Sequence record: OR352946.1
DNA length: 64,000 bases
Source of the DNA: Escherichia phage AV116
Direction: 5' to 3' (one strand)
The notes beneath the pieces were generated by a model, which was not told the DNA's origin, ran no database searches, and saw only the letters and a list, made by a program, of their open reading frames with translations. The position numbers and the translations under genes are program-made. Shown piece by piece: positions 144 to 21,908 of this stretch. Numbering within the stretch: the stretch's first letter is position 1; every line of letters starts with the position of its first letter.

Positions 144-422
144 GTTTACCTCAATACAATTTATTATATACTCAATTCGTAAAGCTTATTTGAATTTCTT
201 GACAATGTTGATATAACGTAAAGCTTCAGCATCGATACTTCCAAGAACACTATGAAGAAATGCGTCAGCGTAGTATTCCAATTGAACAGGTTTCTTTAAT
301 CACTTTAGCCGCTTTAGTTTTAAACAGGCCCATCAGGGCCTTTTTAAGAATTTGTTCGTTAGTGTTCAGTTTAATAGTCAAAATCTCTTCGTTAAGTTTA
401 TAATTAAAAGTTTTTCTAGAAA

Positions 423-1592
423 TCATTCCGGGTACCTCAAAGCGTCATCAGAGTTAGTTATATCAATAATAGATATAGAGTTTTCTGCTAACCCGTTTTT
501 AGATAATTGACGTTTATAATATCTTTCACAATATGTACACGTCGTCCCGCAGATTTCATTAGCACAATCGAAATCTGGATGTCTGAACCACCTTTTTTCT
601 AAAAAGCCATCTAACAAAGAGGTTTCAATATTTACTGTATGTGAAAACTCAGTTTCGTTTTCAAGAGTGAAAATGGTCTCTAAAGGCTTCCACAGTTCTA
701 ACAAATTACCTTCAAACTTTTCAGAAGCGTATGCTTCAAGAACTTTCAAAATGTAGTCTGTGCTACCTGTACGTCCTGAAACTTTGAATTGAGTGATACC
801 AATATCATTATAAAGTTTCAAATCTTGAGGACGAACAAAACGAGTTCTCAACCAGTTAAATGGGTCTGTATCACGAGCTTTAATACAGTGCTGCATAGGA
901 TATCCGTTTAAGGATTTAGCATCATCAGCGGTAACATCAGTACTATGGAAAATATAGCAAGAGTCACGATAGCTACAATGTGTTGTATACCCTTTACCAG
1001 CATTAGAACAGAACTCATTTACAAGAACTTCAAATATTATATTGTTCTTATTGCAAAACTCTGCTGCACGCTTCAGGAAAGAAACTGAACGGTTCTTATG
1101 AATTCCGCAGCAGACCTTTTTGATATTATACTGGTCATGCAAGTATTTGATTTGAGTTACAGCATCGACATGTAGAATTGTTGAAACTTCAATCTCAATG
1201 TCTTTATTGACTTCACGAACAATTTCCATAACAACAGGGTTAGCGATAGTAATACGCCATACGCCTATTGACCAAAGATACTGAACATAATCCTGAATAG
1301 CTTTCTTCTTCCACTCAACTAGTTCTCTTTTTGAACCAGGATTTATCGTGTTGAGTGTATAGTTAAAGCAAATACCTAATTCGTTACAACGTTTAACGTA
1401 GTCTTCTAACATCTTTTTGTCAACGTCAGGAAGCCTAAAATCAGGTCTGGCTGCTACAAAAGCCATTTCTCTTGTAGAGCCATATACTTCGTTTATCAAG
1501 CTATTAGGATAGGTTTTATTGAGCTCTACGATTTTATCAAGAAGAGCTAAATCAAAATTCGTTCCGATTTTAAAAGTATTCATTTTTTGCAT
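423..1592 (-). CDS. cysteine-rich hypothetical protein, candidate Fe-S/TIM-barrel enzyme or DNA sugar transferase of the hypermodification cassette
   Basis: 389-aa ORF with C-terminal CANEICGTTCTYC cluster and further conserved-looking Cys (VCCG, FCSNAG, HCSYRDSC); weak resemblance to U32-type proteins; no T4 counterpart here. Confidence 0.75.
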   Translation of the reverse strand: MQKMNTFKIGTNFDLALLDKIVELNKTYPNSLINEVYGSTREMAFVAARPDFRLPDVDKKMLEDYVKRCNELGICFNYTLNTINPGSKRELVEWKKKAIQDYVQYLWSIGVWRITIANPVVMEIVREVNKDIEIEVSTILHVDAVTQIKYLHDQYNIKKVCCGIHKNRSVSFLKRAAEFCNKNNIIFEVLVNEFCSNAGKGYTTHCSYRDSCYIFHSTDVTADDAKSLNGYPMQHCIKARDTDPFNWLRTRFVRPQDLKLYNDIGITQFKVSGRTGSTDYILKVLEAYASEKFEGNLLELWKPLETIFTLENETEFSHTVNIETSLLDGFLEKRWFRHPDFDCANEICGTTCTYCERYYKRQLSKNGLAENSISIIDITNSDDALRYPE

Positions 1593-1638: not shown

Positions 1639-2040
1639 TTATAGATTCGGTTTATACGATTTAAATGTTTCGAATTCGCCTTTATTCATAAGAGCTTTGA
1701 ATTCGTCAGGACGCATAGCTTTGTCGTCGATAATCCAATCATATACTGGTTTATGTGTTAGCAAATTATGGTACTTCAAGCCAATGTTTGCCAAGTTCTG
1801 AATCAGACTTGGGAGAATGTCAATTGCTATACGTCCAGGACCTACTGACTTCATACCGCGAGCAGTGTAAAGCGTTATGGTATGCCCTGCATCATACAGG
1901 GCATTAATGGCAGACACCATTTCGACGTCTGGTTTGAAGTTCACGTAATCACGATTGTTATTCCACTCTGTTATACAATCATCGACATCAAAACAAAGAT
2001 TAAGCATGTTTTCTACACGGTGCATTAGATTCGTTCCCAT
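1639..2040 (-). CDS. HAD-superfamily phosphatase-like protein
   Basis: 133-aa ORF with N-terminal FDVDDCIT (DxDx[TV] HAD motif I); same operon as the isomerase and nucleotidyltransferase/kinase. Confidence 0.7.
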   Translation of the reverse strand: MGTNLMHRVENMLNLCFDVDDCITEWNNNRDYVNFKPDVEMVSAINALYDAGHTITLYTARGMKSVGPGRIAIDILPSLIQNLANIGLKYHNLLTHKPVYDWIIDDKAMRPDEFKALMNKGEFETFKSYKPNL

Positions 2041-3710
2041 TGATGAGTGATATCGCCACCGATTGGACGATAGGAAACACCAGTTTCTTTATCAGTTAGT
2101 ACCCATTTACCAGGATTTTTTGTAATCAGAGTAGCCGTTACAGGTTCTGCTACGTCATAACTAATAGAGCCGTCCTGAAGTACACGGCCCATGTTACGTA
2201 ATTGCTTAGTCAGAAGTTCCATACCTTTATAATATGCGGCTACCGCTTTAAGTGGATTATTCTTGAAATAACCACCTAATGCAATCCAGATAATTGCCAC
2301 AGCCAAATGATGATATTCATTAAACGAACTCAGCTTTCCATATTTGTAAACTAATGGATTGATGTTAATAGTCACATTACAAGTTGTTTCATCAATAGTA
2401 AACTGTCCCCAGGTCGGATTAGCATTGAATTCATCATAACCTGAAACAGCATAAAGCACTTTAGCTTCATCATACAATTTTGGCCCGTAAATCTTGGTTT
2501 CACCAAAATATCCACGAGGGTCGATAAATTTGACTTCGCCGTTATCAGTAATCATAGTATTACTGAAGTTCGGGTCACCATGAATAACAGAGTACTGTCC
2601 CTGAGAACGGTTATGATAACGAATAAGGTGTTCTAAAGCTTGTTTCAGCATTGGCTTCAGACGTCCAATCTTAGTGTAGTTCACATGTGTGATTTTACCA
2701 AATGAATCAATCAATGGTTGAATGCTTTCACAACGATCAATAACTTTCGTATAGAATTCTTTAGTGAAATCACGACGAACAGTTTCAGGACTTACAAAAT
2801 AAGTGTCTGTGCTGAATTTCAGTGCATCTAAAATTGCATCAACAATTTGTGGACGAGCAAGACTTGATTTGGATTTAATATATTCAAATGCCGGCTTACC
2901 TTTAATGCGTTCCATTTCAAAGTTATTTTCATTAACAGAAACTAACTGAGGAACTGAATCTGATTTCACTTTCAAATACCACGAAATCTCATCTTTCTGA
3001 AGAGCTCGACCTTGTTCAGTTAATGCGAATTTAGTTACAGTTTCTTCACCAATTTCAACTGCATTAAAACTACGATTAAGTTCACGAACTTCATGAGCCT
3101 TTTCAAGTTTAGGCATATCACCAAGGTCGATGATATTCATAAGCTCTGATTTATTGAATGCGCCGCTGTAAAGGAATTCTACGAAATCACGTCCTTTGCA
3201 GTATTCATGAATTTCCTCATCGGTAGAACCCATGTAGAATTCCCAGTCTTTGAACTGATAAATTCCTACAACATTACCACCTGTTGAACCTACGTTAGTG
3301 ATATTTTCACCGTCGAAATTATACCGACATTCATCACCCTTAACATAGATTGCGTTAACATTCCAAGACCATGAACCAAAATCAGGAATAATATCACACC
3401 AGTTAACAATTACATTATGGCCATCTAAATCTTTGTGTAATTTAGCAAGAGCATAAGCAGAACCATACGCTTCATCAACTGTACGAATAGTCACATTGAA
3501 CCCTTCTTGCTCACAATAAGCTCGAACAGTTTCAGCAAATTTTGAATGAACTACTACGATAATTTCATCTGCGCCAAGGTCAGAATAAATTGTATACAAA
3601 TTGCTCAGAATAGTGTCTTGTTTATAGTTAACAAGCACCTTAGGAATATGATGCGTTATTGGATACAAACGAGTTGCCAGTCCAGCACCAAGAATAACAG
3701 CTTTTTTCAT
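2025..3710 (-). CDS. bifunctional sugar-1-phosphate nucleotidyltransferase / APH-like sugar kinase
   Basis: 561 aa; N-terminal LGAGLATRL (GxGxxTRL nucleotidyltransferase signature); C-terminal HGDPNFSNTMI and IDPRG, typical of choline/aminoglycoside-type kinases. Confidence 0.8.
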   Translation of the reverse strand: MKKAVILGAGLATRLYPITHHIPKVLVNYKQDTILSNLYTIYSDLGADEIIVVVHSKFAETVRAYCEQEGFNVTIRTVDEAYGSAYALAKLHKDLDGHNVIVNWCDIIPDFGSWSWNVNAIYVKGDECRYNFDGENITNVGSTGGNVVGIYQFKDWEFYMGSTDEEIHEYCKGRDFVEFLYSGAFNKSELMNIIDLGDMPKLEKAHEVRELNRSFNAVEIGEETVTKFALTEQGRALQKDEISWYLKVKSDSVPQLVSVNENNFEMERIKGKPAFEYIKSKSSLARPQIVDAILDALKFSTDTYFVSPETVRRDFTKEFYTKVIDRCESIQPLIDSFGKITHVNYTKIGRLKPMLKQALEHLIRYHNRSQGQYSVIHGDPNFSNTMITDNGEVKFIDPRGYFGETKIYGPKLYDEAKVLYAVSGYDEFNANPTWGQFTIDETTCNVTININPLVYKYGKLSSFNEYHHLAVAIIWIALGGYFKNNPLKAVAAYYKGMELLTKQLRNMGRVLQDGSISYDVAEPVTATLITKNPGKWVLTDKETGVSYRPIGGDITHQWERI

Positions 3711-3751: not shown

Positions 3752-3895
3752 CTAGTTAAAGCATTCATACTTTGCTTGTAGTCCAATCATAATCCATCCA
3801 ATCACAAGTGTTGGAATCATTACCGGAGCCGTTAAGCTCCAGTAGATAGTCATGACAAGCATCAATAGTAAAAGTCCTATTGTTATTGCTTTCAT
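3752..3895 (-). CDS. small hydrophobic protein (47 aa, two predicted TM segments)
   Basis: Below ORF-track cutoff; ATG overlaps the stop of the upstream SIS gene (ATGA); MKAITIGLLLLMLVMTIYWSLTAPVMIPTLVIGWIMIGL. Confidence 0.35.
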   Translation of the reverse strand: MKAITIGLLLLMLVMTIYWSLTAPVMIPTLVIGWIMIGLQAKYECFN

Positions 3896-4527
3896 TGTTC
3901 GCCTCGTAACATGGCACCTAGTGCACCGCCTGGATGGAACTTAAGGAAATCATTAGAGGTAAATCCACGTTCAGACGAAAGGTTGATAGCAAACGTATCG
4001 ATAAGCGCTAACAACAATGTAGTGGACATAGTCGGAGCTAAAGAGTTCTCGTCAACTTCTACCGCGATACCGGTACAGAACGTATAATCAAAAAGAGCTT
4101 CGTATTCTTGTGGAATGTCAGGGTTACAATGTAACAGAATCTGTTTAACCTGAGGACGAATCATACGAAGATGTTTAGCAACACCTATCATTTCTTCAGT
4201 CTTACCAGAACGACTGATGTGAACTAATACATCATTAGGTGCAATAAATCCTGCGTCACCATGAGAATAATGCCCAGTGTTCAAGTACATACTTGGGATA
4301 CCGAGTGAAGCAAAAGTCTCGGAAGCTTTAGTTGCGATATTAGCGTTCTTACCAACACCTGTAATAATTACCCGGCTTTCATAATTACTAAGTCCAGGGC
4401 GTCGAAGAGTTTCTAGAATAGCGTTATAACGAGCAGGGTTTTGACTAATTACTTTAGCCATAGTGGCAAGAGATGAAGCTTGTTTTACGATTGCGTCAAT
4501 AGCGATAGTGATTGGTGTAGTTTTCAT
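3892..4527 (-). CDS. SIS-domain sugar-phosphate isomerase (KdsD/GutQ-like arabinose-5-phosphate isomerase, no CBS domains)
   Basis: 211 aa; GVGKNANIATKASETFASLGIPS...HGDAGFI...VHISRSGKTEE matches the SIS/KdsD phospho-sugar binding pattern. Confidence 0.8.
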   Translation of the reverse strand: MKTTPITIAIDAIVKQASSLATMAKVISQNPARYNAILETLRRPGLSNYESRVIITGVGKNANIATKASETFASLGIPSMYLNTGHYSHGDAGFIAPNDVLVHISRSGKTEEMIGVAKHLRMIRPQVKQILLHCNPDIPQEYEALFDYTFCTGIAVEVDENSLAPTMSTTLLLALIDTFAINLSSERGFTSNDFLKFHPGGALGAMLRGEQ

Positions 4528-4567: not shown

Positions 4568-7279
4568 TCAAAAATCAAACATATCGAACAGAGATGCTTT
4601 CTTCTCGTAATCGAGTTTAGCTGCTGATGTGAATCCTTCAAGTGGTTTAATAAATGTCTTCTCAAGGAGAACAGTGTAGTCCATCCAATGAAGTACATCG
4701 TCTTTAATTAAATCTGTGATTTCAGTACCAGAAGGCCATGCGATACATTTATCACCGAATGGGTTTCCTTCACGTAAAGGCAGAACATATACTTTTTCAC
4801 CTTCTACAACTTGCGGTGCATCGATATTACCTTTGATAGCCCGGTTATACGTCAGAATTCCACGAATATGGAACGGGCATTTAGGACCAGGGAATCCACC
4901 GACATCATATTTAGCAATGTTATTCGCAGAAGATACCGACGCGATGCTAATATAATTCAATTGACGGAATTCTTTTTCAAACTCTTTAAAATATTCTTGT
5001 AATGATTCTTCACCTTCTTGAAGCATACGACGAATACATTCTTTAAGAGCTTTCTGTACTGCTTTAGGGGTCGAAGATTTCTGAGTCTCTAGACCCATGA
5101 TTTTGAGTTTAGGCTCAGCGTAACGAGTGCCTTCCATATCCCACACGTTTAATGCATAACGTTTCTTACCAGTCCAGAATCCACCAATACCTTTAGAACC
5201 GAGCGGAGGACCAGCGATAGCTTCTCGGTCCATGAACATTAAGTGTTGTTTATTGTTCATGTATTCACACATTTCACGGAAACCTCTATCAATAGCTGGT
5301 TCCATACGTTCACGTGCAAACTTATCTAAGAAGTCTACCCAATGGTTGGTATCACGGAATTTAGATTCACCAACCTTATCGATAATTTTATCAGCAGATA
5401 CGTAAATAGAGTCTGTATCACCATAAAGAACGAAAGCTTCACCTTCTGTACCACAAACTTCATTCAGATATTCATTAACTTTACGTTCAATCCACTGTAA
5501 AGCCATTTGCCCGAATGTTGTGATTGCAGTAGCATTACGCAAATCATAATAACGGAACCAAACGTTGCCAAGTGCACCATAAAGTGAGTTGATAAGCAAT
5601 TTACGGTTAATTTGTGCAGTCATACCTGCAACTTCAGTACGTTGAGCTCTAAACAACATTTCATTAAGAGATTTAGCAGACAACTTTTTAATCTTTTCTT
5701 TAATCTCATCACTGAAGTCGAAACGATAATCAACATCTAATGGTTCGTCAATAGAAAGATTAGGATTATGCAATGCCTCTTTAATTATTTCACCATTACG
5801 TTGAGCTGCAAGCATGTAACCTTTATGTTCTTTACGTTGATTAAAGACCTTAGTGATTTCAGTTGGAACTACACCATCACGGTCTTTATAATACATCATG
5901 CCGTTAGGAGAACAACTGTACACATCTGAAGGACGTTCAGCGATTGCGTTAATATAATCATGTAATGGAGCTACTTTAAACGTTCCTGCTATTGTTTCTG
6001 GGCTAATATTCACTTGGCGAATGATGCTTGGATACAGAGATGTAAGGTCGAAACTCATTACATATTTGTATCGATTTGGAATAGGTTCCTTAACAAAAGC
6101 GCCGGGATAAGGTTGAACCGGGTGAGAACGACCTTGTGGAATCACCTTGTTCTGCTCTTTAAGGCTATTAAAAATAATAGCATCCCATGTTTTAATTGGG
6201 CTAAACACAGATTGAATCTGTATCTTAGCATAATAACCCATGTCCAAGCTCAAGTTGATGAACTGACGCTTAGCATCAATTTGCAATACACGATACACGT
6301 CGATAATGTTATAAGAAATATATCGTTGGTGATTGCTTTCACGAAGCTTAGAAATAGGGCCGTCATATTTCAGTTTACCAACGTTCAATTCAAATTCTGA
6401 AATGTAATCCAGAGAATACGACGGTTGATTGGTAAAAGAGAATTTTTTGTAAAGGTCAATGTAATCAAGAACAGAGATACCGAACAATGTAATGATTTCA
6501 CGAGAACCATACATGTTTTCGATAACTTTAACACGAGTTTTACGATGTGGCGATAAACGTTTCGCAGTAGATTCGCCAAAAATATTCTTGATTCGGTTAT
6601 ACACATATGGAATATCAAATGACTCAACGTTCCATCCGGTTAAAATGACAGGAGTTTTCTGTTGCCAGAAATTGAGATATTCCATCAATAATTCTTTTTC
6701 GTTATCGAACGGCATATAAATGATTTTATCGATAATTTCAGATGGAACTTCATCACCACCTTGTTCTTGAAGCTTAGCAGCGATTTCAATAGACCATTCT
6801 TCTACATTACCATACGGAGAATTCAATAGATCAAATACGTAGAACCTGTCGTCAATTGAGTCATAATGGGTGATAGCATCAATAGGATGCTTTGCTTGTG
6901 CCGGCTCAGGGAACCCGTCCGGAGATGTTACTTCGATGTCGAAGTTAGCCACACGAATTTTTGTATGGTCGTATTTGATTTCATAGTTATAAGTGTCAGA
7001 CAAATACGCCAATTTGAAATCGTCCATGCCAAGTGCTTCAAGTCCGATATCTTCCATGCGTTTAATCCATTGGGAGGCATCACGCATATTAGCGAACAAC
7101 TTACGAGTACACGGCTTACCGTAGATATCGAAATATTTCGTAGCCTGACTTTCTGGACAATGAGCAAACAGTGATGGTTTATATTCTACTTCACGAGTAC
7201 GTTCACGGCCATTAGAATCGATGTAACGTTCAAAAATTGAATCACCAATCTGTTCAACCGTTAAGTAAAATTCTTTCAT
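4568..7279 (-). CDS. 43: DNA polymerase (family B) gp43
   Basis: 903 aa; recognisable T4 gp43 sequence with exonuclease and polymerase motifs (YGDTDS); flanked by regA-62-44-45 as in T4. Confidence 0.97.
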   Translation of the reverse strand: MKEFYLTVEQIGDSIFERYIDSNGRERTREVEYKPSLFAHCPESQATKYFDIYGKPCTRKLFANMRDASQWIKRMEDIGLEALGMDDFKLAYLSDTYNYEIKYDHTKIRVANFDIEVTSPDGFPEPAQAKHPIDAITHYDSIDDRFYVFDLLNSPYGNVEEWSIEIAAKLQEQGGDEVPSEIIDKIIYMPFDNEKELLMEYLNFWQQKTPVILTGWNVESFDIPYVYNRIKNIFGESTAKRLSPHRKTRVKVIENMYGSREIITLFGISVLDYIDLYKKFSFTNQPSYSLDYISEFELNVGKLKYDGPISKLRESNHQRYISYNIIDVYRVLQIDAKRQFINLSLDMGYYAKIQIQSVFSPIKTWDAIIFNSLKEQNKVIPQGRSHPVQPYPGAFVKEPIPNRYKYVMSFDLTSLYPSIIRQVNISPETIAGTFKVAPLHDYINAIAERPSDVYSCSPNGMMYYKDRDGVVPTEITKVFNQRKEHKGYMLAAQRNGEIIKEALHNPNLSIDEPLDVDYRFDFSDEIKEKIKKLSAKSLNEMLFRAQRTEVAGMTAQINRKLLINSLYGALGNVWFRYYDLRNATAITTFGQMALQWIERKVNEYLNEVCGTEGEAFVLYGDTDSIYVSADKIIDKVGESKFRDTNHWVDFLDKFARERMEPAIDRGFREMCEYMNNKQHLMFMDREAIAGPPLGSKGIGGFWTGKKRYALNVWDMEGTRYAEPKLKIMGLETQKSSTPKAVQKALKECIRRMLQEGEESLQEYFKEFEKEFRQLNYISIASVSSANNIAKYDVGGFPGPKCPFHIRGILTYNRAIKGNIDAPQVVEGEKVYVLPLREGNPFGDKCIAWPSGTEITDLIKDDVLHWMDYTVLLEKTFIKPLEGFTSAAKLDYEKKASLFDMFDF

Positions 7280-7337
7280 TTAATTTCCTTTAGACGAGTT
7301 ATTGTCTTTTGTTTGTTGATGAACTTATTATACTCCA

Positions 7338-7357
7338 AATGGGACCGAAGTCCCATT
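7338..7357 (-). promoter_or_regulatory. RNA hairpin (8-bp stem, UUCG loop) between regA and gene 43
   Basis: Perfect palindrome aatgggac-cgaa-gtcccatt in the regA-43 intergenic region, upstream of the gene 43 start. Confidence 0.4.
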
Positions 7358-7360
7358 GCT

Positions 7361-7729
7361 TTAATTACCAATTGTATATTTTGCTTTCAAAGTCCAGTCA
7401 TCTTTCTGTTTAAAAGAGATAACACGGAAGTTATTAGTCAGGCCAAACAGATCTTCACGAGCAGAGTCTTCAATAACAATCAAGCCCCAGTCTTCAAGCA
7501 ACTGAGCAATCGAATCACGTCGTTGGTAGTCTTCACCATCAATATCAACCTGACGTCCGTCCATACGCAGCATTTCTTTAAAGTGGACGATGTAGTATTT
7601 ACCTTGCTTTTGGAGGATATGACAAGACTGATAAAGAACTTTATCCTTGTTATTAGCGATGCCCATACGGGTCAGAGTCTCTTTGACTTTCAGAAAATCT
7701 TCGGGGTTCTTCAATTTAATTTCGATCAT
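7361..7729 (-). CDS. regA: RegA translational repressor
   Basis: Matches T4 RegA (MIEI.LK.PEDFLKVKETLTRMGIANNKDKVLYQSCHILQK...); ORF track starts 9 nt earlier (7738), start chosen by homology. Confidence 0.9.
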   Translation of the reverse strand: MIEIKLKNPEDFLKVKETLTRMGIANNKDKVLYQSCHILQKQGKYYIVHFKEMLRMDGRQVDIDGEDYQRRDSIAQLLEDWGLIVIEDSAREDLFGLTNNFRVISFKQKDDWTLKAKYTIGN

Positions 7730-7731
7730 TT

Positions 7732-8295
7732 TTACCATTCCAATGCTAATTTTTTAAATTGTTTTTGTTCTTTCACATTTTTTGTAACTTCTTTGAGAAA
7801 CTCATCAGTGACCATGGCCTTCAGTTCTTTAAGGACTATTGGCAACTTGTTATTTTTTTCAAGGAGCCGCTTATACTCGGTAGCATCATTCATGTTGATT
7901 GTGTAATGTTTCATCAACAGTTTGATAACTAGTAACTCTGAAGTGTCTTCAACTAGTTTAGCCCATTTAGAGAATCGACGACCACGCGGAATTGCAGCCA
8001 TCATATAGTTGAAGTGCGCTTCATCACTTAATTCAGAACCGACTAAGTTCATCATGTAAACAGCTGGCATACATTCCGGGAACTGGGATAATGAGTTCTC
8101 AACCATAAATTTTGAGTAGTCGACCTGAGCAATTGACGTAGATTTCTTTTCATTAATAGCATTAATGATTTTAAAGAATTCATTCTCAGGTTTTTCTTTA
8201 AACATGTCAGCACATTTTTGAATCGCATCAGCGTCGTTAGACTTCCATGCAATTTGGTGCTCGTTAAGTTGGACGTCATCATCAAATAAGTTCAT
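7732..8295 (-). CDS. 62: clamp loader small subunit gp62
   Basis: 187 aa; T4 gene order regA-62-44-45. Confidence 0.88.
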
Positions 8296-8296
8296 A

Positions 8297-9259
8297 TTAT
8301 TTCCAAGTCAGTTCGCAGGTCAGTTGAAGAAGCATATACATAACATGTAATTCAATATTACTTGCTAATCCATGAAACTTATTGTTTTCGCCTGCAATTT
8401 CATAAAGCGAAATAATACTTTTACCAGGTGCAACTTGGTCATAACATTCTGAAACTAATTTATCGATGAACCATGAATAATCTGCGGCATATTTTGGAGC
8501 TAATGCACGAAGTTGTTTGATATCTTTATTTTTCATTGCTTCTATGACATCATCTACCGTGCCACGGTCATTAGTTACGATAGACAAAATACCCGCATCA
8601 AGAACACCTTTAGACGAGTACTGGTCTAATTGACCAATTGTACGACGAAAGTCCGGGAAGTTCTTTTTAACCAGAGCTGCAACAACTTTCATATCAGCGA
8701 TTTCGATATTTTCGTTCTTACAGATTTCAACCATACGATGAATCATTTTCTTCATCATCGAGATTTTATCTTCTTCGGTTGGACGTCCGAATTCGATAAC
8801 TCGACAACGACTACGTAACGGTTCGATAATTCCATCGATGTTGTTAGCAGTAATAATAATAGAACAGTTACTAGAGAATTCTTCCATAAACGTACGAAGG
8901 TGACGTTGTGATTCGGCGAGGCCACTACGGTCAAATTCATCGATAACGATAACTTTCGGCTTGCCTTCCATTGAGACTGAACGAGCGAATGCAGTTAATG
9001 GACCACGCACAAAATCAATCTTACAATCAGAACCGTTGACGAACATCATTTCGGCATTAATATCATTACATAATGCTTTTGCTACGGTTGTTTTACCTGT
9101 ACCAGGAGAAGGAGAGTGTAAAATAATATGAGGAAGTTTTCCTTTAGATACTAAAGACTTGAATGTTTCATGGTCATACGCAGGCAGAATACATTCGTCA
9201 ATGGAAGAAGGACGATATTTCTGTTCTAGAATGTGTTCTTTGGAATTGATAGTAATCAT
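8297..9259 (-). CDS. 44: clamp loader ATPase gp44 (AAA+)
   Basis: 320 aa; Walker [11 protein letters not shown], Walker B VIVIDEFD; close match to T4 gp44. Confidence 0.95.
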
Positions 9260-9285
9260 GTAATTTTCCTCATTATCATTAAACT

Positions 9286-9301
9286 GGAGGATTTCTCCTC
9301 C
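9286..9301 (-). promoter_or_regulatory. RNA hairpin GGAGGA-GAAA-UCCUCC between genes 45 and 44
   Basis: 6-bp stem with GAAA tetraloop on the transcript, upstream of the gene 44 ribosome-binding site. Confidence 0.35.
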
Positions 9302-9334
9302 ATAATCGTATCACAATAAACGTAAAGCTTTGAC

Positions 9335-10021
9335 TTAGAAGTCGTGAGTAGAATCGGCTTCCATCGCAATAACATAACTTACTTGAGAGCTTTCAAACTT
9401 GGCTGCAACTTTATCACCAGCTCCCCACAACATTACTTTATAGTTACCTGGCTGGATTTTCATATTAGCCATATTGATTACGAAGTTAAAGTTGTTAGAA
9501 CCATCATAATCGGTAAGAGTCAAAGAATACTTAGGACGAGTTAGTCCTGAATCTTCAACTTTATTATAGCCATTGATAACAATTTTACCATCTTTATTTG
9601 TAATAGCAATTGTATCAATCTGAAGACCACGTGAAACTCGAAGCAATTGTTGAAGGTCTTCAGCTTTAATTTCAGTAATCACAGAAGCTACTGGGAATTG
9701 AATTGGCTTATTAGGAAAAACAATTGTGCTCTTGTCAGCGGCAGGCCAATAAACTGTGGAACGTGTATCTGCAATTTTAATATTGCCATCAGTGTGCATT
9801 GAAATTTCAGCATCATCAGACACTAGACTCAAAATGCTTAAGAAGCTATTCAAATCATAAAGTGCTACGTCAAAATCAATTTCATCAGAGATATTTGCTT
9901 CCGCATAAGTGGTGCCATTAACTGCACGAGTCATAATAAATTTACCTTGACTCAGCAGAATGCCAGAGTTAATAGAAGCGAAGTTTTTCAGAATATTTAC
10001 GGTTTCACGGCTAAGTTTCAT
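9335..10021 (-). CDS. 45: sliding clamp gp45
   Basis: 228 aa; position and sequence as T4 gp45. Confidence 0.9.
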   Translation of the reverse strand: MKLSRETVNILKNFASINSGILLSQGKFIMTRAVNGTTYAEANISDEIDFDVALYDLNSFLSILSLVSDDAEISMHTDGNIKIADTRSTVYWPAADKSTIVFPNKPIQFPVASVITEIKAEDLQQLLRVSRGLQIDTIAITNKDGKIVINGYNKVEDSGLTRPKYSLTLTDYDGSNNFNFVINMANMKIQPGNYKVMLWGAGDKVAAKFESSQVSYVIAMEADSTHDF

Positions 10022-10917
10022 TTAGGTTTCCTATTAGCATAATAATTTGTCCAAGTCCGGATAGCACCTTGGTATGATTCATCATTAAAACCATGCTGAA
10101 TTGCATGTTTTCTAAATGTAATATAACTTGGTTTTCCTAAAGCAATCCACAATTCCTTTAATTTTTGTTCATGAAATATCCATGTACCTCTAGCTTTAGA
10201 TTTTCTGAATTTATCCTTAAATTCTTTGGTTGCATTTCTTTTCGAAGCTGCGATAGAGGCCTTTGCTCTATTTTCAGGTTTAGACCAATACAATGTTTTA
10301 GATATTTTTATTTTATCTTTAACATTAGGAGAATTCATTATATCTTTAAATTTTAAAGCAAAATCTCTATCGTTAAACATTTTTTTAGAACGAATAGAAA
10401 CTTTCTCTCTTCGTTCTTTGGTCCAATATGTTTTTTGAAATTCTCTAATTGCGTTTAAATGATTCTCCGACAATTTGCAATTTTTTCTAACACCGACGTA
10501 ATCTTCGTTTATTTCGTTTTTAGAAAGTTTTACTATTTTGCCTGTTTTTAAATTTTTATACGGTGCATATCCTTTAGCTGATATTCTAGACTTCTCGTTA
10601 GCATAAGCCTTATTAAAATATTTTTCATTTGAAACGGCTTTAACATTGAGTTGGAATAGTCTTTCTATTCTTCTAGGGTCTAATGTGGTTTCGCCTAAAA
10701 TTTTTACAGAATATTCGCCTTGGTCTATTAATCTGTTATATAAAGGAGAATACGAGGAATTAACACTACCGGTATATATTTTACCGGTAGAATCTTCAAT
10801 AATATCCTTTCCATTAAAATGACACGAAACTTTAGAACCTATATAATAACACGGGTATTCATTTTTAATCTCACGATTATAAAAGGTTATAAGATATATT
10901 AAATTCATAATTATCAA
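10018..10917 (-). CDS. GIY-YIG family homing endonuclease (Seg-like), free-standing
   Basis: N-terminal IYLITFYN...YYIGSK (GIY-x12-YIG); lysine-rich C-terminal half; inserted between gene 45 and rpbA-like ORF. Confidence 0.7.
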   Translation of the reverse strand: MIIMNLIYLITFYNREIKNEYPCYYIGSKVSCHFNGKDIIEDSTGKIYTGSVNSSYSPLYNRLIDQGEYSVKILGETTLDPRRIERLFQLNVKAVSNEKYFNKAYANEKSRISAKGYAPYKNLKTGKIVKLSKNEINEDYVGVRKNCKLSENHLNAIREFQKTYWTKERREKVSIRSKKMFNDRDFALKFKDIMNSPNVKDKIKISKTLYWSKPENRAKASIAASKRNATKEFKDKFRKSKARGTWIFHEQKLKELWIALGKPSYITFRKHAIQHGFNDESYQGAIRTWTNYYANRKPK

Positions 10918-11330
10918 GCAACAACCATCTGCTTTTTAATAGCTTCAGGCAGTGATTCAATATATTCTGGAATTTTAGAAGCAACAATTTCGCCAGCTGC
11001 AATTAGTTGTTCGTCGGCATCAACACAGTAAAAATCTTCAAGGCGTTCAGAACCGTCTTTATCAAGAACGATTTTAGCACCTGCTTCGATAGAATCTTTA
11101 TAGTGCTTACGCATCAAATGAATCCACATATCAGACACATCGTTATCAATAAAACCATAAATCATAAAACGAGTTTCTTGTGGCAAAGATTGGAGTTTTT
11201 TAGCACTTGCGTCATCACAATGCAGGACCCATGCTTTACGAACACGATTATGGTTATGTGGGTTAGCGTCAGTACGGATAGAAGTAACTTTCAGATCAGC
11301 AGCAGTGAAACCTTTAGCAGTAGTAAACAT
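10914..11330 (-). CDS. rpbA: RpbA-like protein (assigned by position)
   Basis: 138-aa ORF in the T4 rpbA position between 45 and 46; sequence identity not verified. Confidence 0.45.
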   Translation of the reverse strand: MFTTAKGFTAADLKVTSIRTDANPHNHNRVRKAWVLHCDDASAKKLQSLPQETRFMIYGFIDNDVSDMWIHLMRKHYKDSIEAGAKIVLDKDGSERLEDFYCVDADEQLIAAGEIVASKIPEYIESLPEAIKKQMVVA

Positions 11331-11342
11331 ATTATTTCTCTC

Positions 11343-11543
11343 TTATTCGTAGAAGTCGGTAACTGTCCATGCGGAATTGCGATTAGACATTATTTTATTA
11401 TACTCATCTTTAAAAGCAGATTTGAGCATTTGTTCAGTAACAATATGTTCTTCACCTGAAAACGTATTGGTCAAAACATATTTTTTAATTTCAGGGACAA
11501 CGAGAAGATGTTGTCCAGTTGAATACTCCATGTTGTTCTCCAT
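11343..11543 (-). CDS. hypothetical protein (45.2-like position)
   Basis: 66-aa ORF between the rpbA-like ORF and gene 46. Confidence 0.45.
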   Translation of the reverse strand: MENNMEYSTGQHLLVVPEIKKYVLTNTFSGEEHIVTEQMLKSAFKDEYNKIMSNRNSAWTVTDFYE

Positions 11544-11585
11544 TTAACACGATGTGGTCATTATAACCACATCGTGTTAAAGCGT

Positions 11586-13274
11586 TTATGAAACAGTCAT
11601 TACCGTAAATCGTCCAACTTTGCTCATTTGAAGATGTTGTCCATAAGCTTGTGGGTCATGGTCTCTGTGACTAATTATAAACACGTTTGCATCGGTTAGA
11701 GAGTTAAGAATTGTTGAAATAGCTTTAATACCTTCAGAATCAGTCGCGGAATCCATGACTTCGTCCATAATTAATGTATTGATTCTAACACCAGAGACCT
11801 TTTCAGCAATATCTCGCCATGTAAACAACAACGCGATATCGATACGTGCTTTTTCACCTTGACTAAATGAAGCATAACTGAACTCTTCACGACCACGTGA
11901 TTTTATAGATTCATTGAATTCTTCGTCAATAGAAAACACGTAATCAGCTTCCATGATTTTAAGATAATGGTTAATCTGCTTGTTGAACAGAGGCACATAT
12001 TTTTTAATGATAGCACCTTTAATACCAGAATCTTTTAACATATCTGTGATAATACCACGATGGTATTTTTCAAGAACGATATCCGATTTTGTTTTAATGA
12101 TTTTATCAAGTTCTTTTTGAAGCAAAGCTATCTCATCGGCATGGTCGATAAATTCCGCTGAGGCTTGTTCTATTGCAGCTTTAACTTTCTTAGCTTTATC
12201 AATAGTGGCAATCATTGCTTGTTTCTTGGTACGAATATCAGATGCAAGGTCCTGTTTAGTCTTAACATTAGCTCTATATTCGTCCACTAGGACACTCAGA
12301 TTATCTCTGTGGCAGGTAAGTTGCTCGAATGAGTGATTACATTCATGAAGCTTATCGGTAATCTTAGAGACAATAGGATCACCCTGGTGCAACTGTGATG
12401 CGCAAGTAGGACATGTACCGCCATCATGATACATCTTAATAACTTTGTTGTATGAGTCAATTTTAGATTTAATCAAGAATGCTTCTTGTCCTATCTTGTT
12501 GAATGCCTCAGTAGGGTCTTCATCAAGAACGATATTAAGTAGTCGCTCATTAGCTTCTTCGATTTCTGCTTTTAATGAACGAGCTTCTTTAGCTAGGTCG
12601 TCATACATATTCTGTAGACGCGCTACATTATCACCAGATAATTTCTTTTGACGTTCGATATTCTCGTTATAAATCTTAATTTGTTGGATAACACCATCTT
12701 TCTTGGCATCGAGAACTTGTCCCTGGGAATTAAGTTCTCGAACTTGAGACTTATTGATTTTATCCATTTCAGCGAGTGTGCCGACTTCTAAAAGGTCTTC
12801 GACAAGTTTTCTACGAGCAGGGGTGCTAAGAGCCATGAAAGGGGTATACCCTGCCGTCCCAAGCACAACGATCTGTTTAAAAGACGCGTATGACATTCCG
12901 ATGCTACGTTCAAATTCTTCTTGGAAGTCACGACTGCTGGCAGATTCATCAAGACGAACACCGTCAACGGAGATTTCGAAAATATTGGGCTTTTGGCCAC
13001 GTTTAATGAAGTATTTTTTATCATCGAATTCCATCCAAAGCTCAACTAAGAGCTCTTTCTTGTTCGTGCTATTAATGATTTGTCCTTTCTTAACATCACG
13101 AAATGGTTTACCGAAAAGTCCGAAAGTAATGGCTTCTAACATCGTAGATTTACCACCGCCATTTTTACCAGTGATTAATGTCTTTTGAACTTTATCTAAT
13201 TGGATATCAATAGGATTCCCACCTACCGACATGATGTTTTGATAACGAACACGATTTAATTTAAATGATTTCAT
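11586..13274 (-). CDS. 46: recombination endonuclease ATPase subunit gp46 (Rad50/SbcC-like)
   Basis: 562 aa; Walker A GKNGGGKST, central coiled coil with CPTC zinc hook, C-terminal LIMDEV; T4 46-47 synteny. Confidence 0.95.
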   Translation of the reverse strand: MKSFKLNRVRYQNIMSVGGNPIDIQLDKVQKTLITGKNGGGKSTMLEAITFGLFGKPFRDVKKGQIINSTNKKELLVELWMEFDDKKYFIKRGQKPNIFEISVDGVRLDESASSRDFQEEFERSIGMSYASFKQIVVLGTAGYTPFMALSTPARRKLVEDLLEVGTLAEMDKINKSQVRELNSQGQVLDAKKDGVIQQIKIYNENIERQKKLSGDNVARLQNMYDDLAKEARSLKAEIEEANERLLNIVLDEDPTEAFNKIGQEAFLIKSKIDSYNKVIKMYHDGGTCPTCASQLHQGDPIVSKITDKLHECNHSFEQLTCHRDNLSVLVDEYRANVKTKQDLASDIRTKKQAMIATIDKAKKVKAAIEQASAEFIDHADEIALLQKELDKIIKTKSDIVLEKYHRGIITDMLKDSGIKGAIIKKYVPLFNKQINHYLKIMEADYVFSIDEEFNESIKSRGREEFSYASFSQGEKARIDIALLFTWRDIAEKVSGVRINTLIMDEVMDSATDSEGIKAISTILNSLTDANVFIISHRDHDPQAYGQHLQMSKVGRFTVMTVS

Positions 13275-13525
13275 ATGTATTCTCTTCGAATGAAGTCCTC
13301 TACATATTTTAACATGTCATCCCTATCAGCAAAATATTCATCTAGTTCTGCATACATAACAACACCTGGTGCATACTCACAGGTAACATACATTGTTCCA
13401 AAGAAACGAGGAGTTGATTCCTCGTAATTCTCAGTCCATTCAACGATACCAATATAACCGTCACCAATACTAAATTCATGACGATGGATTTCATAATCAG
13501 TCTTCGTCATTATACGCATCCTCAA
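13271..13525 (-). CDS. hypothetical protein (46.1-like position)
   Basis: 84-aa ORF between 47 and 46, translationally coupled. Confidence 0.5.
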   Translation of the reverse strand: MRMRIMTKTDYEIHRHEFSIGDGYIGIVEWTENYEESTPRFFGTMYVTCEYAPGVVMYAELDEYFADRDDMLKYVEDFIRREYI

Positions 13526-13754
13526 TACACGCTTCAGCCATTTTAAGAATAGAGCCAGGAGTATCGTTGTCCATTATATTAAAGCTAAATTCAATAGCCC
13601 AGTCGGTGCAGACATGAACTGCTTTAACTTCATTGCCTTCAACGCGTAATGGCTCAATCCAATACTTGATAGTGTTCTCGAATCCATCGTCATCTTTAAC
13701 GTCCATTTCAACTTCAAGCCTGAGTCCAGCATTGTTAAATTCATCTAAAGTCAT
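13497..13754 (-). CDS. hypothetical protein (46.2-like position)
   Basis: 85-aa acidic ORF between 47 and 46. Confidence 0.5.
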   Translation of the reverse strand: MTLDEFNNAGLRLEVEMDVKDDDGFENTIKYWIEPLRVEGNEVKAVHVCTDWAIEFSFNIMDNDTPGSILKMAEACIEDAYNDED

Positions 13755-14773
13755 TGTGTTGCCTCAATATAAAGTTCGTTGGAATATTTGACCAGCGCTT
13801 CTCTGTCTTCATCTGAGATATCTGGAATCGCGTCAATATATTCTTTAATGATATCTTGAAGTGATTTAATCTCGATTTCCTGGTCGTCATCAGATTCAAC
13901 ACTGTTATCAACTTTAGAAACCATACGAAGAGAGTGAACTACTTTTTCAAGTTCAGATTCAAACTTAGTCAACTCTGAATCAATTTCTGATACTATAACA
14001 CGTACGGCTAGATTAGTATAATCAGAATAATTGATTTTGCCTTTAAATGGATAAGTGATTCGTCGATGCCATGTTGTTTCATTAGGAATAAATTCCATAC
14101 GTTCAACATCAGTGTCAAATACCCAGAATCCGCGCGGGTCGTTCTCATCACCTGCAGTAAGGGTCCATGGTGTCCCAATATATTTGACGTTAGCAGCTTC
14201 AGAGATTGTGTGGAAGTGGCCGGACCAGACTTGTTTATAGGTCTTTAAGAAATCAGGTTCAAGCCCATGAGACTTCATTCCTTTATAGAAATAGAAGCCA
14301 TTTAATTCCCAGTGCCCAACACAATACGCTGCAGAAGAAGTCTTGATGTGCTCTAAGATTTCACCTGTATTTTCTTCACACATCCATGGAATCAAATCAA
14401 TCAAGCACCCATCAAAATCTACTGTAGTTGGCTTATCATAAATTATTACGTTTTTACGATGGCTCAATAATTCTTGAACAGTGTTAGGATATAAGGTTGT
14501 TTTATAAAAGAGATCATGATTCCCAAGTATTGTATGGACTGTTATACCAGCGGCTTCCACCAAATCAAACATTTCACGCGTGAATTCCATACAACGTTGT
14601 GTGGTGTGGGCTCTGACATCAAATGTATCACCATATTGAATCCATGTTGTTATTCCATTTGCGACGGAATAGTCGATCATTTGTCTGAAACCGTCACGTT
14701 GTATAGCTTGAATCCAATCGTCGTCTTTTTTGACGCCTAGATGCAAATCGCCTATATTAAGTATTTTCATCAC
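13751..14773 (-). CDS. 47: recombination nuclease gp47 (Mre11/SbcD-like)
   Basis: 340 aa; calcineurin-like phosphoesterase motifs (GDLHLG, GNHD, GHFH). Confidence 0.95.
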   Translation of the reverse strand: MMKILNIGDLHLGVKKDDDWIQAIQRDGFRQMIDYSVANGITTWIQYGDTFDVRAHTTQRCMEFTREMFDLVEAAGITVHTILGNHDLFYKTTLYPNTVQELLSHRKNVIIYDKPTTVDFDGCLIDLIPWMCEENTGEILEHIKTSSAAYCVGHWELNGFYFYKGMKSHGLEPDFLKTYKQVWSGHFHTISEAANVKYIGTPWTLTAGDENDPRGFWVFDTDVERMEFIPNETTWHRRITYPFKGKINYSDYTNLAVRVIVSEIDSELTKFESELEKVVHSLRMVSKVDNSVESDDDQEIEIKSLQDIIKEYIDAIPDISDEDREALVKYSNELYIEATQ

Positions 14774-19623: not shown

Positions 19624-20094
19624 TTAATCATGTTTCCACACCCCATCGGTATTTGACCAAAGTCGCTGATTATCTGATCCTCGCCACAGTTTTTTGGTCG
19701 GAAGATTTTTCTCATACTTCCCATCAATAATAACATCAACATATTTAAGCATTTCTAGTTGTTTAATATCTTCAAACTTATATCCTGTCCACAACCAAAT
19801 GCTTTTATTGGGATAAAGATTTTTTACTGTTTGAACAATGCAATGAATAACATCTCGGTTATCAGGATAGAGAGGGTCACCTCCGGTTATAGTTAATCCT
19901 TCTATATAATCATTATTCAAACATTCAATTAATTGTTCTAGTGTTTCACCAGTGAATGGAATACCATTTCTAGCATTCCATGTTGATTTATTATAACACC
20001 CTTCGCATTTATGCAAACAACCTGTAACGAAAAGAACGACCCTACAACCAGGGCCATTCACAAAATCGCAAGGATAAAATCTATCATAATTCAT
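19624..20094 (-). CDS. nrdG: anaerobic ribonucleotide reductase activating protein NrdG (radical SAM)
   Basis: 156 aa; CLHKCEGCYN (CX3CX2C) near N-terminus; follows nrdD. Confidence 0.93.
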   Translation of the reverse strand: MNYDRFYPCDFVNGPGCRVVLFVTGCLHKCEGCYNKSTWNARNGIPFTGETLEQLIECLNNDYIEGLTITGGDPLYPDNRDVIHCIVQTVKNLYPNKSIWLWTGYKFEDIKQLEMLKYVDVIIDGKYEKNLPTKKLWRGSDNQRLWSNTDGVWKHD

Positions 20095-21908
20095 TGGTGT
20101 TTAACCCTATGCATGATTTCTTTATTTTTACCGAGATTAAATCCGCGTTCGTTCGGATTTCCCAAATAGCCGCATGTTCTTCTTATGGTGTTCATCTTTT
20201 TAGGATCAGTTTCTCCGCAAACTGAACAAACAAATCCATTTTCGGTAGGAGTCATTTCATGAGTACTTCCACATGTAAAACATTTATCTACTGGCATATT
20301 AACACCAAAATAATCTAAATGTTGTGCAGCATAATCCCAGACAGCCTCAAGTCCTTTTAAGTTATTTTTCATATCAGGAAGTTCAACATAAGAAATGTGA
20401 CCACCTGTCGCAATGAAATGATACGGCGCTTCACGAGAAATCTTTTCAAACGGAGTAGTATTTTCTTCTACTGAAACGTGGAAACTGTTAGTGTACCAGC
20501 CTTTATCGGTAACATCTTTTACACTTCCATATTTTTCTGTATCAAGTTTACAGAAGCGATAACAAAGGTTTTCAGCAGGAGTAGAATACAAACTAAAAGC
20601 AAAACCAGTTCTTTCAGTCCACTGTTTAAGATGAGCATTCATTTTAGTTAAAATTTCTTGTCCAATATCACGACCGACAAGAATATTCAATTCATGAATA
20701 CCGATGTATCCTAAAGACACTGAACTTCTACCGTTTTTAAATAGCTCAATTATATCGTCATCAGGTTTAAGACGAACCCCGAATGCACCTTCTTGGTAAA
20801 GAATAGGAGCAACAGTCGCTTTAACTCCTTTTAAGGAACTAATTCTACACATCAAAGCTTCAAAACACAGGTCCATTCGTTCATTGAATAATTCAACAAA
20901 TTTCTGTTCATTGAACTGTGTTCCAATATAAGAATCTAATGCGATACGAGGAAGATTCAGTGTTACAACGCCGAGATTATTACGACCGTCAAGAATTTCA
21001 TTTCCAGTTGAATCTTTCCATACGCTCAAGAAACTACGGCAACCCATCGGAGAAACTGGAACTGAAGAACCGGTAATAGCTTTATTATTCTTAACTGAAA
21101 TAATGTCAGGATACATTCTTTTGCTTGCACATTCTAACGCAAGTTGTTTAATATCATAGTTTGGATCATCTTTATAAAGATTAACACCTTCTTCAAAAAA
21201 CATAACAAGCTTAGGGAAAATAGGAGTTATTCCATCACGTCCAAGGCCTTTAATGCGGTTTTTAAGAATTGCCTTCTGAATCATTCGTTCAGTCCAGTCA
21301 GTTCCCGTACCAAATGTAATTGTCACAAAAGGCGTTTGTCCGTTTGAACTAAAGAGAGTGTTTACTTCATATTCATAAGCTTGGAATGCATCGTATACGT
21401 CTTTTTCTGTTTTAGATTGAGCATAATTCAGAATGTCTGGTATTTGCCATTTTTCTGCATCTTCAACATGTTTAGCGTATGTGCGTTTAACATAAGGAGA
21501 AAGAACTTTATCGACATTCGCAAATGTAGTTCCGCCATACTGGTGTGAAGCAACTTGTGCAGTAATTTGTGCCATAATTGCAGTAGCAACGCCAATAGAT
21601 TTAGGCGTTTCAATTTGAGCATTGCCTAATTTAAATCCATTCTCAAGCATTCCTTTTAAATCTACTAAACAGCAATTAGTAAAAGGCAATGATATACTAT
21701 AATCTAAATCGTGAAAATGAATTAATCCGACATTATGAGCATTTACAATATGGCTCGGAAGAATACTACAAGCGATATGTTTAGAAACAATACCGGCCAT
21801 TAAATCTCTTTTTGTTGGAAAGACACGAGAATCTTTGTTGGCATTTTCGGTATTTAATTCTTTATCTTTATTTGAAATAAAATTTAAAACATCTTTCTCT
21901 AAAGACAT
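20091..21908 (-). CDS. nrdD: anaerobic ribonucleoside-triphosphate reductase NrdD
   Basis: 605 aa, uninterrupted; C-terminal zinc-ribbon cysteines and glycyl-radical region. Confidence 0.95.
   Translation of the reverse strand: MSLEKDVLNFISNKDKELNTENANKDSRVFPTKRDLMAGIVSKHIACSILPSHIVNAHNVGLIHFHDLDYSISLPFTNCCLVDLKGMLENGFKLGNAQIETPKSIGVATAIMAQITAQVASHQYGGTTFANVDKVLSPYVKRTYAKHVEDAEKWQIPDILNYAQSKTEKDVYDAFQAYEYEVNTLFSSNGQTPFVTITFGTGTDWTERMIQKAILKNRIKGLGRDGITPIFPKLVMFFEEGVNLYKDDPNYDIKQLALECASKRMYPDIISVKNNKAITGSSVPVSPMGCRSFLSVWKDSTGNEILDGRNNLGVVTLNLPRIALDSYIGTQFNEQKFVELFNERMDLCFEALMCRISSLKGVKATVAPILYQEGAFGVRLKPDDDIIELFKNGRSSVSLGYIGIHELNILVGRDIGQEILTKMNAHLKQWTERTGFAFSLYSTPAENLCYRFCKLDTEKYGSVKDVTDKGWYTNSFHVSVEENTTPFEKISREAPYHFIATGGHISYVELPDMKNNLKGLEAVWDYAAQHLDYFGVNMPVDKCFTCGSTHEMTPTENGFVCSVCGETDPKKMNTIRRTCGYLGNPNERGFNLGKNKEIMHRVKHQ

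Follow-up and report, generated by a model that had tools for sequence, protein, structure and literature searches.

A U32-family protein of RB69-like phages as a candidate prephenate-dependent, oxygen-independent hydroxylase for 5-hydroxycytosine synthesis

We analysed a 64,000-nucleotide stretch of Escherichia phage AV116 (OR352946.1; hereafter the window) and propose that one of its genes, the homolog of RB69 gp50 (RB69p050), encodes an enzyme that hydroxylates C5 of a pyrimidine with prephenate and without O2 and thereby opens an anaerobic route to 5-hydroxycytosine (5hoC), a reading to which we assign a probability of about 0.55. The new evidence is the genomic linkage of this gene, a member of the U32 family, to genes for chorismate mutase (CM) and DAHP synthase (DAHPS), and its distribution among phages. 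The gut is largely anoxic, and the phages concerned infect enteric bacteria and destroy dCTP with a dCTPase of their own. Because the published 5hoC route needs O2 and dCTP is destroyed, such a phage would have no cytosine nucleotide for anaerobic replication without an oxygen-free hydroxylase, and a prephenate-dependent U32 enzyme would solve this problem.

RB69 DNA contains arabinosylated 5hoC and not hmC (PMC13326640, 2026). The ThyA homolog gp48 binds flavin and hydroxylates dCMP with oxygen that comes from O2, as established by 18O2 labelling, and gp48 alone is enough for 5hodC formation under air, also in recombinant E. coli (PMC13326640). The RB69 sugar genes lead to UDP-arabinofuranose, the transferases are gp46:47 and gp3, and triarabinosylation on DNA by the DLP3 enzymes has been verified experimentally (PMC13326640). 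RB69p050 appears in that study in Table 1 only, labelled “Sugar or heterocycle reductase” and with 5d88 given for its structural hits, and the discussion cites the RlhA and TrhP pathways as unrelated systems without connecting them to gp50. We found no link between U32 proteins, CM or prephenate and phage cytosine modification in the full-text literature that we covered; He et al. (2026, Nat Chem Biol) and Mahler et al. (2025, Cell Host Microbe) lie outside that coverage and may treat the gene. The gene is not a topic of the Thanatos or Durham-collection papers, and the phage Tn-seq preprint gives no data at gene level for LC53 or Bas46.

Family membership, fold and conserved cysteine sites

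The window spans a T4-like replication module (gp43 polymerase, regA, gp62, gp44, gp45, rpbA and gp46) and shares 98–99% identity with RB69-like coliphages of the genus Mosigvirus; its top match is Escherichia phage AV118 (99.2%). The U32 gene occupies positions 423–1592, as the initial annotation had it, lies on the minus strand and encodes 389 residues from its first ATG; it is identified by its Pfam match, by PHROG 5757 and by synteny with RB69p050. A second ATG at M4 (nucleotide 1583), which would yield 386 residues, has better Shine-Dalgarno spacing than the first and is the annotated start in phages HY126 and AV118, and so may be the real start. The protein is 99–100% identical across 142 Mosigvirus records, and its gene has a dN/dS of 0.01–0.06 (0.01–0.04 inside the genus), which reflects strong purifying selection.

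Residues 97–289 (positions 726–1304, minus strand), which form the TIM-barrel core, match Pfam Peptidase_U32 (PF01136) with an E value of 7.4e-11 and 42.2 bits against a gathering cut-off of 22.4, and the same domain is matched in the orthologs and in nearly all of the listed homologs. The initial annotation had called the middle of the protein loosely U32-like; the resemblance was borne out, but “loosely” understates a match so far above the cut-off. It had also recommended structure prediction followed by a fold search, and an AlphaFold2 model built from a 111-sequence alignment (pLDDT 93.3, pTM 0.91) has a U32-type TIM-barrel fold, with U32 proteins and generic TIM barrels as its top fold matches and no GT-A or GT-B fold. 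We regard it as virtually certain that the phage protein is a true member of the U32 family. The subfamily to which it belongs is large and separate, with 494 representatives at E ≤ 1e-30 among 1.84 billion sequences in an exhaustive profile search. Neither the protein nor the family profile had a meaningful match in the PDB, and an NCBIfam search returned only a weak match to UbiU (18 bits). Mk0906 (PDB 5d88), the sole solved U32 structure, shows 14% identity (247 aa) to the phage protein. When the phage profile was aligned with the four E. coli U32 paralogs (hhalign), RlhA was the best match (E 5.6e-6 over 202 columns); TrhP gave an E value of 1.5e-3, UbiU gave 6e-3, and UbiV gave no match.

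With 13 cysteines (3.3%, compared with 1.1% pooled over the 61 ORFs of the window), the protein is indeed cysteine-rich, as first described; it ranks third in the window, where the radical-SAM activase NrdG ranks first. Four of the cysteines form the C-terminal cluster singled out by the initial annotation, C343-ANEI-C348-GTT-C352-TY-C355 (positions 528–566, minus strand), which is the only CX4CX3CX2C motif in the window. All four are invariant in 121 of 121 close and mid-distance homologs and in the wider family they are kept in 121–123 of 129 representatives; a motif so conserved is not a product of chance. In total, nine cysteines are invariant among the 121 homologs, down to ~48% identity.

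A second conserved site, overlooked in the initial annotation, lies in the centre of the protein (positions 885–1010, minus strand) and comprises C195 (codon 1008–1010), C206 (975–977), C212 (957–959) and C236 (885–887). The [4Fe-4S] ligands of U32 proteins, which have been defined by mutagenesis and spectroscopy (PMC6747719; PMC5727448), are four cysteines of the CX6CX15CX3/4C type (PMC6747719). In a direct alignment, C206, C212 and C236 of the phage protein fall on the first three of these ligands (C169/C176/C192 in RlhA and C169/C176/C193 in UbiU), but the phage spacing is CX10CX5CX23C and the fourth canonical cysteine is absent. Among 129 diverse full-length representatives, C195 is present in 128 and C206 and C236 in all 129, whereas C161 is not conserved; position 212 is occupied by cysteine in 76 and by histidine in 52. 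To judge from this alignment, C195 is likely to be the fourth ligand of the central site, and the alternation of cysteine and histidine at position 212 is what a metal ligand, as opposed to a disulfide partner, typically shows. From the conservation of the central and C-terminal cysteines and from this alternation, we infer that the family has two four-ligand metal sites, the central one predicted to hold [4Fe-4S] and the C-terminal one [4Fe-4S] or Zn.

RlhA (YdcP), the best of the E. coli matches, is needed for 5-hydroxycytidine at C2501 of 23S rRNA, depends on prephenate and on Fe-S biogenesis, and has essential cysteines in the U32 motif and also in its C-terminal region (PMC5727448), a two-region requirement that parallels the two cysteine sites of the phage protein. 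The two proteins have in common the U32 domain and the motifs “C...(S/Q)CYxxHA” and “FK(V/I)xGR”, and the C5 hydroxylation of cytosine is the chemistry that we propose for the phage protein. They differ in that RlhA has 653 residues, a DUF3656 region and a pre-50S rRNA substrate, whereas the phage protein has 389 residues, a C-terminal domain of its own and the altered set of central cysteines, and its predicted substrate is a deoxynucleotide or DNA. UbiU and UbiV tolerate variant ligand spacings (CX6CX16CX38C and CXnCX12CX3C) and carry two clusters per heterodimer (PMC6747719). They resemble the phage protein, as we picture it, in being U32 Fe-S proteins with displaced ligands and two clusters per functional unit, but they act as a heterodimer on a lipid substrate with the UbiT carrier, and their profile similarity to the phage family is weak (UbiU) or absent (UbiV). 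For UbiU-UbiV, prephenate has been shown to be the oxygen donor, for whose supply the PheA chorismate mutase domain suffices; direct hydroxylase activity of RlhA, TrhP or UbiU/V has not been reconstituted in vitro (PMC10990095).

Linkage to prephenate supply and distribution among phages

On the minus strand of the window, the genes for the isomerase, the kinase/pyrophosphorylase and the HAD phosphatase of the sugar pathway lie upstream of the U32 gene, and a small ORF and the start of the ThyA-like gene lie downstream. The last of these, the 5′ end of the gene for the ThyA-like 5-hydroxy-dCMP synthase (RB69 gp48 homolog), occupies positions 1–143 and is truncated at base 1 of the window; it was assigned by alignment to RB69 and HY126 and from the AV118 annotation, and its function is taken from PMC13326640. 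Only gp49 and, in other genera, a gene for CM part the synthase gene from the U32 gene.

In Erwinia phage Virsaitis27, the U32 gene, a 114-codon gene and the ThyA-like gene follow one another with overlapping stop and start codons, and the 114-residue product belongs to the type II chorismate mutases (Pfam CM_2, with 44.6 bits and a cut-off of 27; NCBIfam CM models). HMM searches detected a CM gene in 14 of 16 T-even-type loci, placed between the U32 gene and the ThyA-like synthase gene, and tblastn located the same CM in phages of 13 genera (56 records), without exception in this neighbourhood. Even in Shewanella phage Thanatos-2, where the cluster is rearranged, the U32 and CM genes overlap. 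Chorismate mutase makes prephenate, and prephenate is what RlhA and TrhP need (PMC5727448; PMC6599085). CmoA is another consumer of prephenate (PMC12783734), and neither the annotations nor our searches revealed a CmoA-like gene in the clusters that we inspected. The record of Proteus phage Pm5461 has an annotated rho-independent terminator just before the start of U32 (L009, positions 4442–4486), which suggests that U32, CM and ThyA may form a transcription unit of their own, apart from the sugar genes.

By tblastn, neither the window nor the Mosigviruses contain a CM gene, and the corresponding slot holds only the gp49 homolog. The Mosigvirus U32 gene is under strong purifying selection even without CM; the prephenate would then come from the host enzymes PheA/TyrA. 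We considered whether the two short ORFs in the slot (positions 265–426, 53 residues, and 186–281, 31 residues) are a decayed CM gene, but tblastn drew a blank; they are a frameshifted copy of gp49 (positions 186–426, minus strand), homologous to gp051 of Yersinia phage TG1, a small protein encoded between U32 and CM. Intact RB69 gp49 has 79 residues. In the run AAAG(A)nCC, n is 2 in RB69 and phiE142, where the gene is intact, and 3 in the window, AV118 and HY126; the HY126 copy additionally carries TT where the others have T. Decay, phase variation or a sequencing artefact could each account for the frameshift in this small gene, which separates U32 from the synthase gene.

The linkage to CM and DAHPS recurs in two diverged clades. 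U32 homologs that are 44–58% identical to the window protein occur on viral contigs of 8–466 kb, and we tabulated the neighbours of U32 in 34 distant loci. A homolog of 5hoC arabinosyltransferase-1 (GT1; E 1e-13 to 3e-16) is present in 24 of the 34 and often abuts or overlaps the U32 gene; an AfhE homolog is found in 16 and an arabinose-5-phosphate (A5P) isomerase homolog in 9. A CM gene adjoins U32 in 10 loci and a DAHPS gene in 6, four of which are DAHPS::CM fusions, and either or both are adjacent in 12 of the 34. A ThyA-family gene is clear in only one locus (L034), with one marginal match (L062), in the 8–10 kb that were tabulated on each side of U32; such a gene could lie farther out. 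The ThyA-family HMM used for this search was built with E. coli ThyA and Rhizobium RL38J1 and recovers 19 of 19 positive controls.

The arrangement in locus L047 illustrates the pattern: GT1, A5P isomerase, AfhE, kinase, DAHPS::CM, HAD and U32 follow in that order, and both domains of the fusion (positions 7302–8357) score above their Pfam gathering thresholds. DAHPS::CM fusions also adjoin U32 in L044, L045 and L057, and a free-standing CM gene directly follows U32 in L049, L051, L054, L055, L058 and L059 (contigs of 195–294 kb). A neighbour of U32 in L011 that would have pointed to a sugar link through arabinose-5-phosphate, as a Kdo8P synthase, proved to be a DAHP synthase (237 against 63 bits). 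In L014 (positions 5777–14179 of a 61-kb contig), U32 lies with GT1, a TAGT-family transferase, dUTPase/DCD, Gly_transf_sug and UDP-galactopyranose mutase, and without a ThyA-like gene; this phage may make a furanosyl-hexose hydroxypyrimidine modification through U32. In L001 (11175–11939) and L012 (9080–9826), large phage contigs that encode PolIII-alpha, a dCMP deaminase gene precedes U32, and a conserved, weakly Epimerase-like protein of 248–254 residues, 58% identical between the contigs, is encoded directly after it. Overall, three configurations are found: the ThyA-like gene may stand alone, it may be joined by U32 and in some cases also by CM, or U32 may occur in its absence, in some cases accompanied by CM or DAHPS. 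Such a pattern is expected if U32 carries out the hydroxylation step, as a case of non-orthologous displacement.

Close homologs of the 5hodCMP synthase are present in 373 phage records (Escherichia, 176; Acinetobacter, 57; Klebsiella, 26; Rhizobium, 20; others). The 221 phage records with U32, which share at least 80% identity, all belong to Straboviridae that infect Enterobacterales or Shewanella; none is a phage of the aerobes Acinetobacter or Rhizobium, despite the 57 and 20 synthase records from these hosts. At the junction where other phages hold U32, alone or with CM, the HAD gene of Acinetobacter phage Lazarus and of Pseudomonas phage PspYZU05 is followed immediately by the ThyA-like gene. 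This distribution fits an oxygen-related role, although it is one-sided, covers few lineages and is confounded by phylogeny. A strict rule that an enteric host entails U32 is broken by the E. coli Dhakavirus JS10 (L015), which has a synthase homolog (80% identical), AfhE, HAD, kinase and GT genes and lacks U32, CM and an annotated A5P isomerase.

Proposed function and alternative readings

We propose that the phage protein, as a U32 Fe-S TIM-barrel enzyme like RlhA, TrhP and UbiU/V, would hydroxylate C5 of a pyrimidine DNA precursor and take the oxygen atom from prephenate instead of O2. The substrate would most likely be dCMP, yielding 5-hydroxy-dCMP, and less likely cytosine already in DNA; action on dCMP is favoured because 5hodCTP is needed once dCTP has been destroyed, and because kinase, dCMP deaminase and DCD genes lie near U32 in distant loci. 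The central Cys/His site would hold a [4Fe-4S] cluster, and the C-terminal four-cysteine site a second cluster for electron relay, as has been proposed for the UbiU-UbiV heterodimer. In Mosigviruses, the enzyme would provide a second, anaerobic route to 5hoC, the product of which would then be arabinosylated, and would act as a backup to the ThyA-like synthase. Prephenate would be drawn from the host in Mosigviruses and made by phage CM, sometimes together with DAHPS, in most other lineages. The synthase (gp48 and its counterparts HY126 and DLP3 gp80) would have the product 5hodCMP in common with the U32 protein but differs in its ThyA fold, its flavin and its use of O2, and in being found in phages of aerobes that lack U32. 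Since gp48 alone suffices for 5hodC aerobically (PMC13326640), gp50 would be dispensable under laboratory conditions.

There is a precedent for such a dual route: TrhP, a prephenate-dependent U32 protein, and the unrelated, O2-dependent TrhO lead to the same ho5U34 in tRNA (PMC6599085), which is the logic that we propose for gp50 and gp48. The systems differ in that TrhP modifies a tRNA uridine and resembles the phage protein in its N-terminal half only, and in that TrhO is a rhodanese whereas the O2-dependent partner here is a flavoenzyme with a ThyA fold. A parallel within the window would be the anaerobic ribonucleotide reductase pair (positions 19624–21908, minus strand), formed by NrdG (19624–20094, 156 residues) and NrdD (20091–21908, 605 residues) and identified by Pfam matches to NRDD (567 bits), Gly_radical and Fer4_12/Radical_SAM: here, too, an O2-independent enzyme for DNA precursors would stand beside an O2-dependent one.

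If this proposal is true, U32/prephenate chemistry would extend from RNA and quinones to DNA precursors, and there would be a reason why phages carry shikimate-pathway genes. The U32 family, for which reconstitution in vitro is lacking, would also gain for this purpose an enzyme that is small, highly expressed and made of one polypeptide. For phage therapy, the modification state, and hence the evasion of restriction and CRISPR, could vary with oxygen and with host aromatic amino-acid metabolism, and the combination of U32, CM/DAHPS and GT1 genes could mark hydroxypyrimidine-based hypermodifications in metagenomes. A wider generalisation, to which we give slightly less than even odds, is that the phage U32 subfamily (at least 494 clusters at 50% identity) comprises hydroxylases that use prephenate in place of O2 and are the first of this kind to act on DNA precursors, serving as an anaerobic bypass in gut T-even-like phages and as the sole hydroxylase in many uncultivated phages, in which phage CM and DAHPS would redirect host shikimate flux.

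The strongest competitor, which we nevertheless consider unlikely, is that the protein has an accessory redox role, either re-reducing the flavin of the ThyA-like synthase or acting as the “sugar or heterocycle reductase” of Table 1 in PMC13326640. Two predicted metal sites would suit electron transfer, and the U32 gene adjoins those for the synthase and for sugar activation. Yet 32–33 of the 34 distant loci have U32 without any ThyA-like gene, and neither Acinetobacter phages nor recombinant E. coli need U32 for the synthase to function. RB69, which has U32, and DLP3, which lacks it, share the same arabinosyl-5hoC chemistry, so the product gains nothing distinctive from U32. Nor would a reductase role account for the linkage to CM and DAHPS.

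Somewhat less probable still is that the protein is, like RlhA and TrhP, an RNA hydroxylase, for tRNA or rRNA of the host or the phage, and that its gene lies in a DNA-modification cluster by chance. T-even phages encode their own tRNAs, and the closest characterised relatives, with RlhA as the best E. coli match, act on RNA pyrimidines. The phage protein, however, lacks the C-terminal domains of RlhA and TrhP (453 residues). In two deeply diverged clades, U32 co-occurs only with 5hoC-type glycosylation clusters, where it often overlaps a DNA glycosyltransferase gene, and all 221 U32-positive records belong to the Straboviridae group that carries such clusters.

The initial annotation was right about the U32 relationship but also noted a radical-SAM-like spacing and entertained a DNA sugar transferase; neither a radical-SAM nor a glycosyltransferase reading held up. 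The radical-SAM-like spacing of the last three cysteines is real (C348-X3-C352-X2-C355, with an aromatic residue ahead of the last), but that they serve to cleave SAM is highly improbable. No Radical_SAM (PF04055) match was found in Pfam at E ≤ 1, and the top fold matches are U32 and generic TIM barrels. The motif (residues 348–355) lies after the barrel and not after strand 1, and the invariant C343 would occupy the site that has to stay open for SAM. NrdG, which has the sole other CX3CX2C motif in the window, carries it at the classical N-terminal position and does match Radical_SAM. Least probable of all is that the protein is a collagenase-type U32 peptidase like PrtC, as the database names “peptidase” and “collagenase-like protease” imply, or the missing DNA sugar transferase that the initial annotation guessed at: the peptidase name is historical, the mechanism of the supposed activity is unknown (PMC5727448) and characterised U32 members are linked to hydroxylation, while GT families were matched neither in Pfam, PHROG or NCBIfam nor among the top fold matches, and the transferases, including the GT1 homologs, are separate genes (PMC13326640).

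Sugar-pathway genes and other features of the window

Directly upstream of the U32 gene lies a gene for a HAD-type phosphatase (positions 1639–2040, minus strand), assigned as the homolog of AfhF/RB69 gp51 from PHROG 1238, synteny and PMC13326640. It is preceded by the gene for a bifunctional sugar kinase/NDP-sugar pyrophosphorylase (2025–3710, minus strand; homolog of AfhE/RB69 gp52:53), assigned from Pfam NTP_transferase and kinase-like matches and PMC13326640. The latter is a single intact frame of 561 residues, in agreement with the published claim that a sequencing error produced the separate gp52 and gp53 of the RB69 reference. The arabinose-5-phosphate isomerase gene (homolog of RB69 gp55; Pfam SIS, PHROG 5670) occupies positions 3892–4527 on the same strand.

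A promoter and terminator scan of the window was uninformative, with 11 promoter-like sites against 16.8 expected. Between gp45 and rpbA lies an ORF of 299 residues with a TTG start (positions 10018–10917, minus strand) and no Pfam match; its N-terminal sequence, “IYLITF...YYIGS”, is GIY-YIG-like, and the ORF may be the insertion of a Seg-type homing endonuclease.
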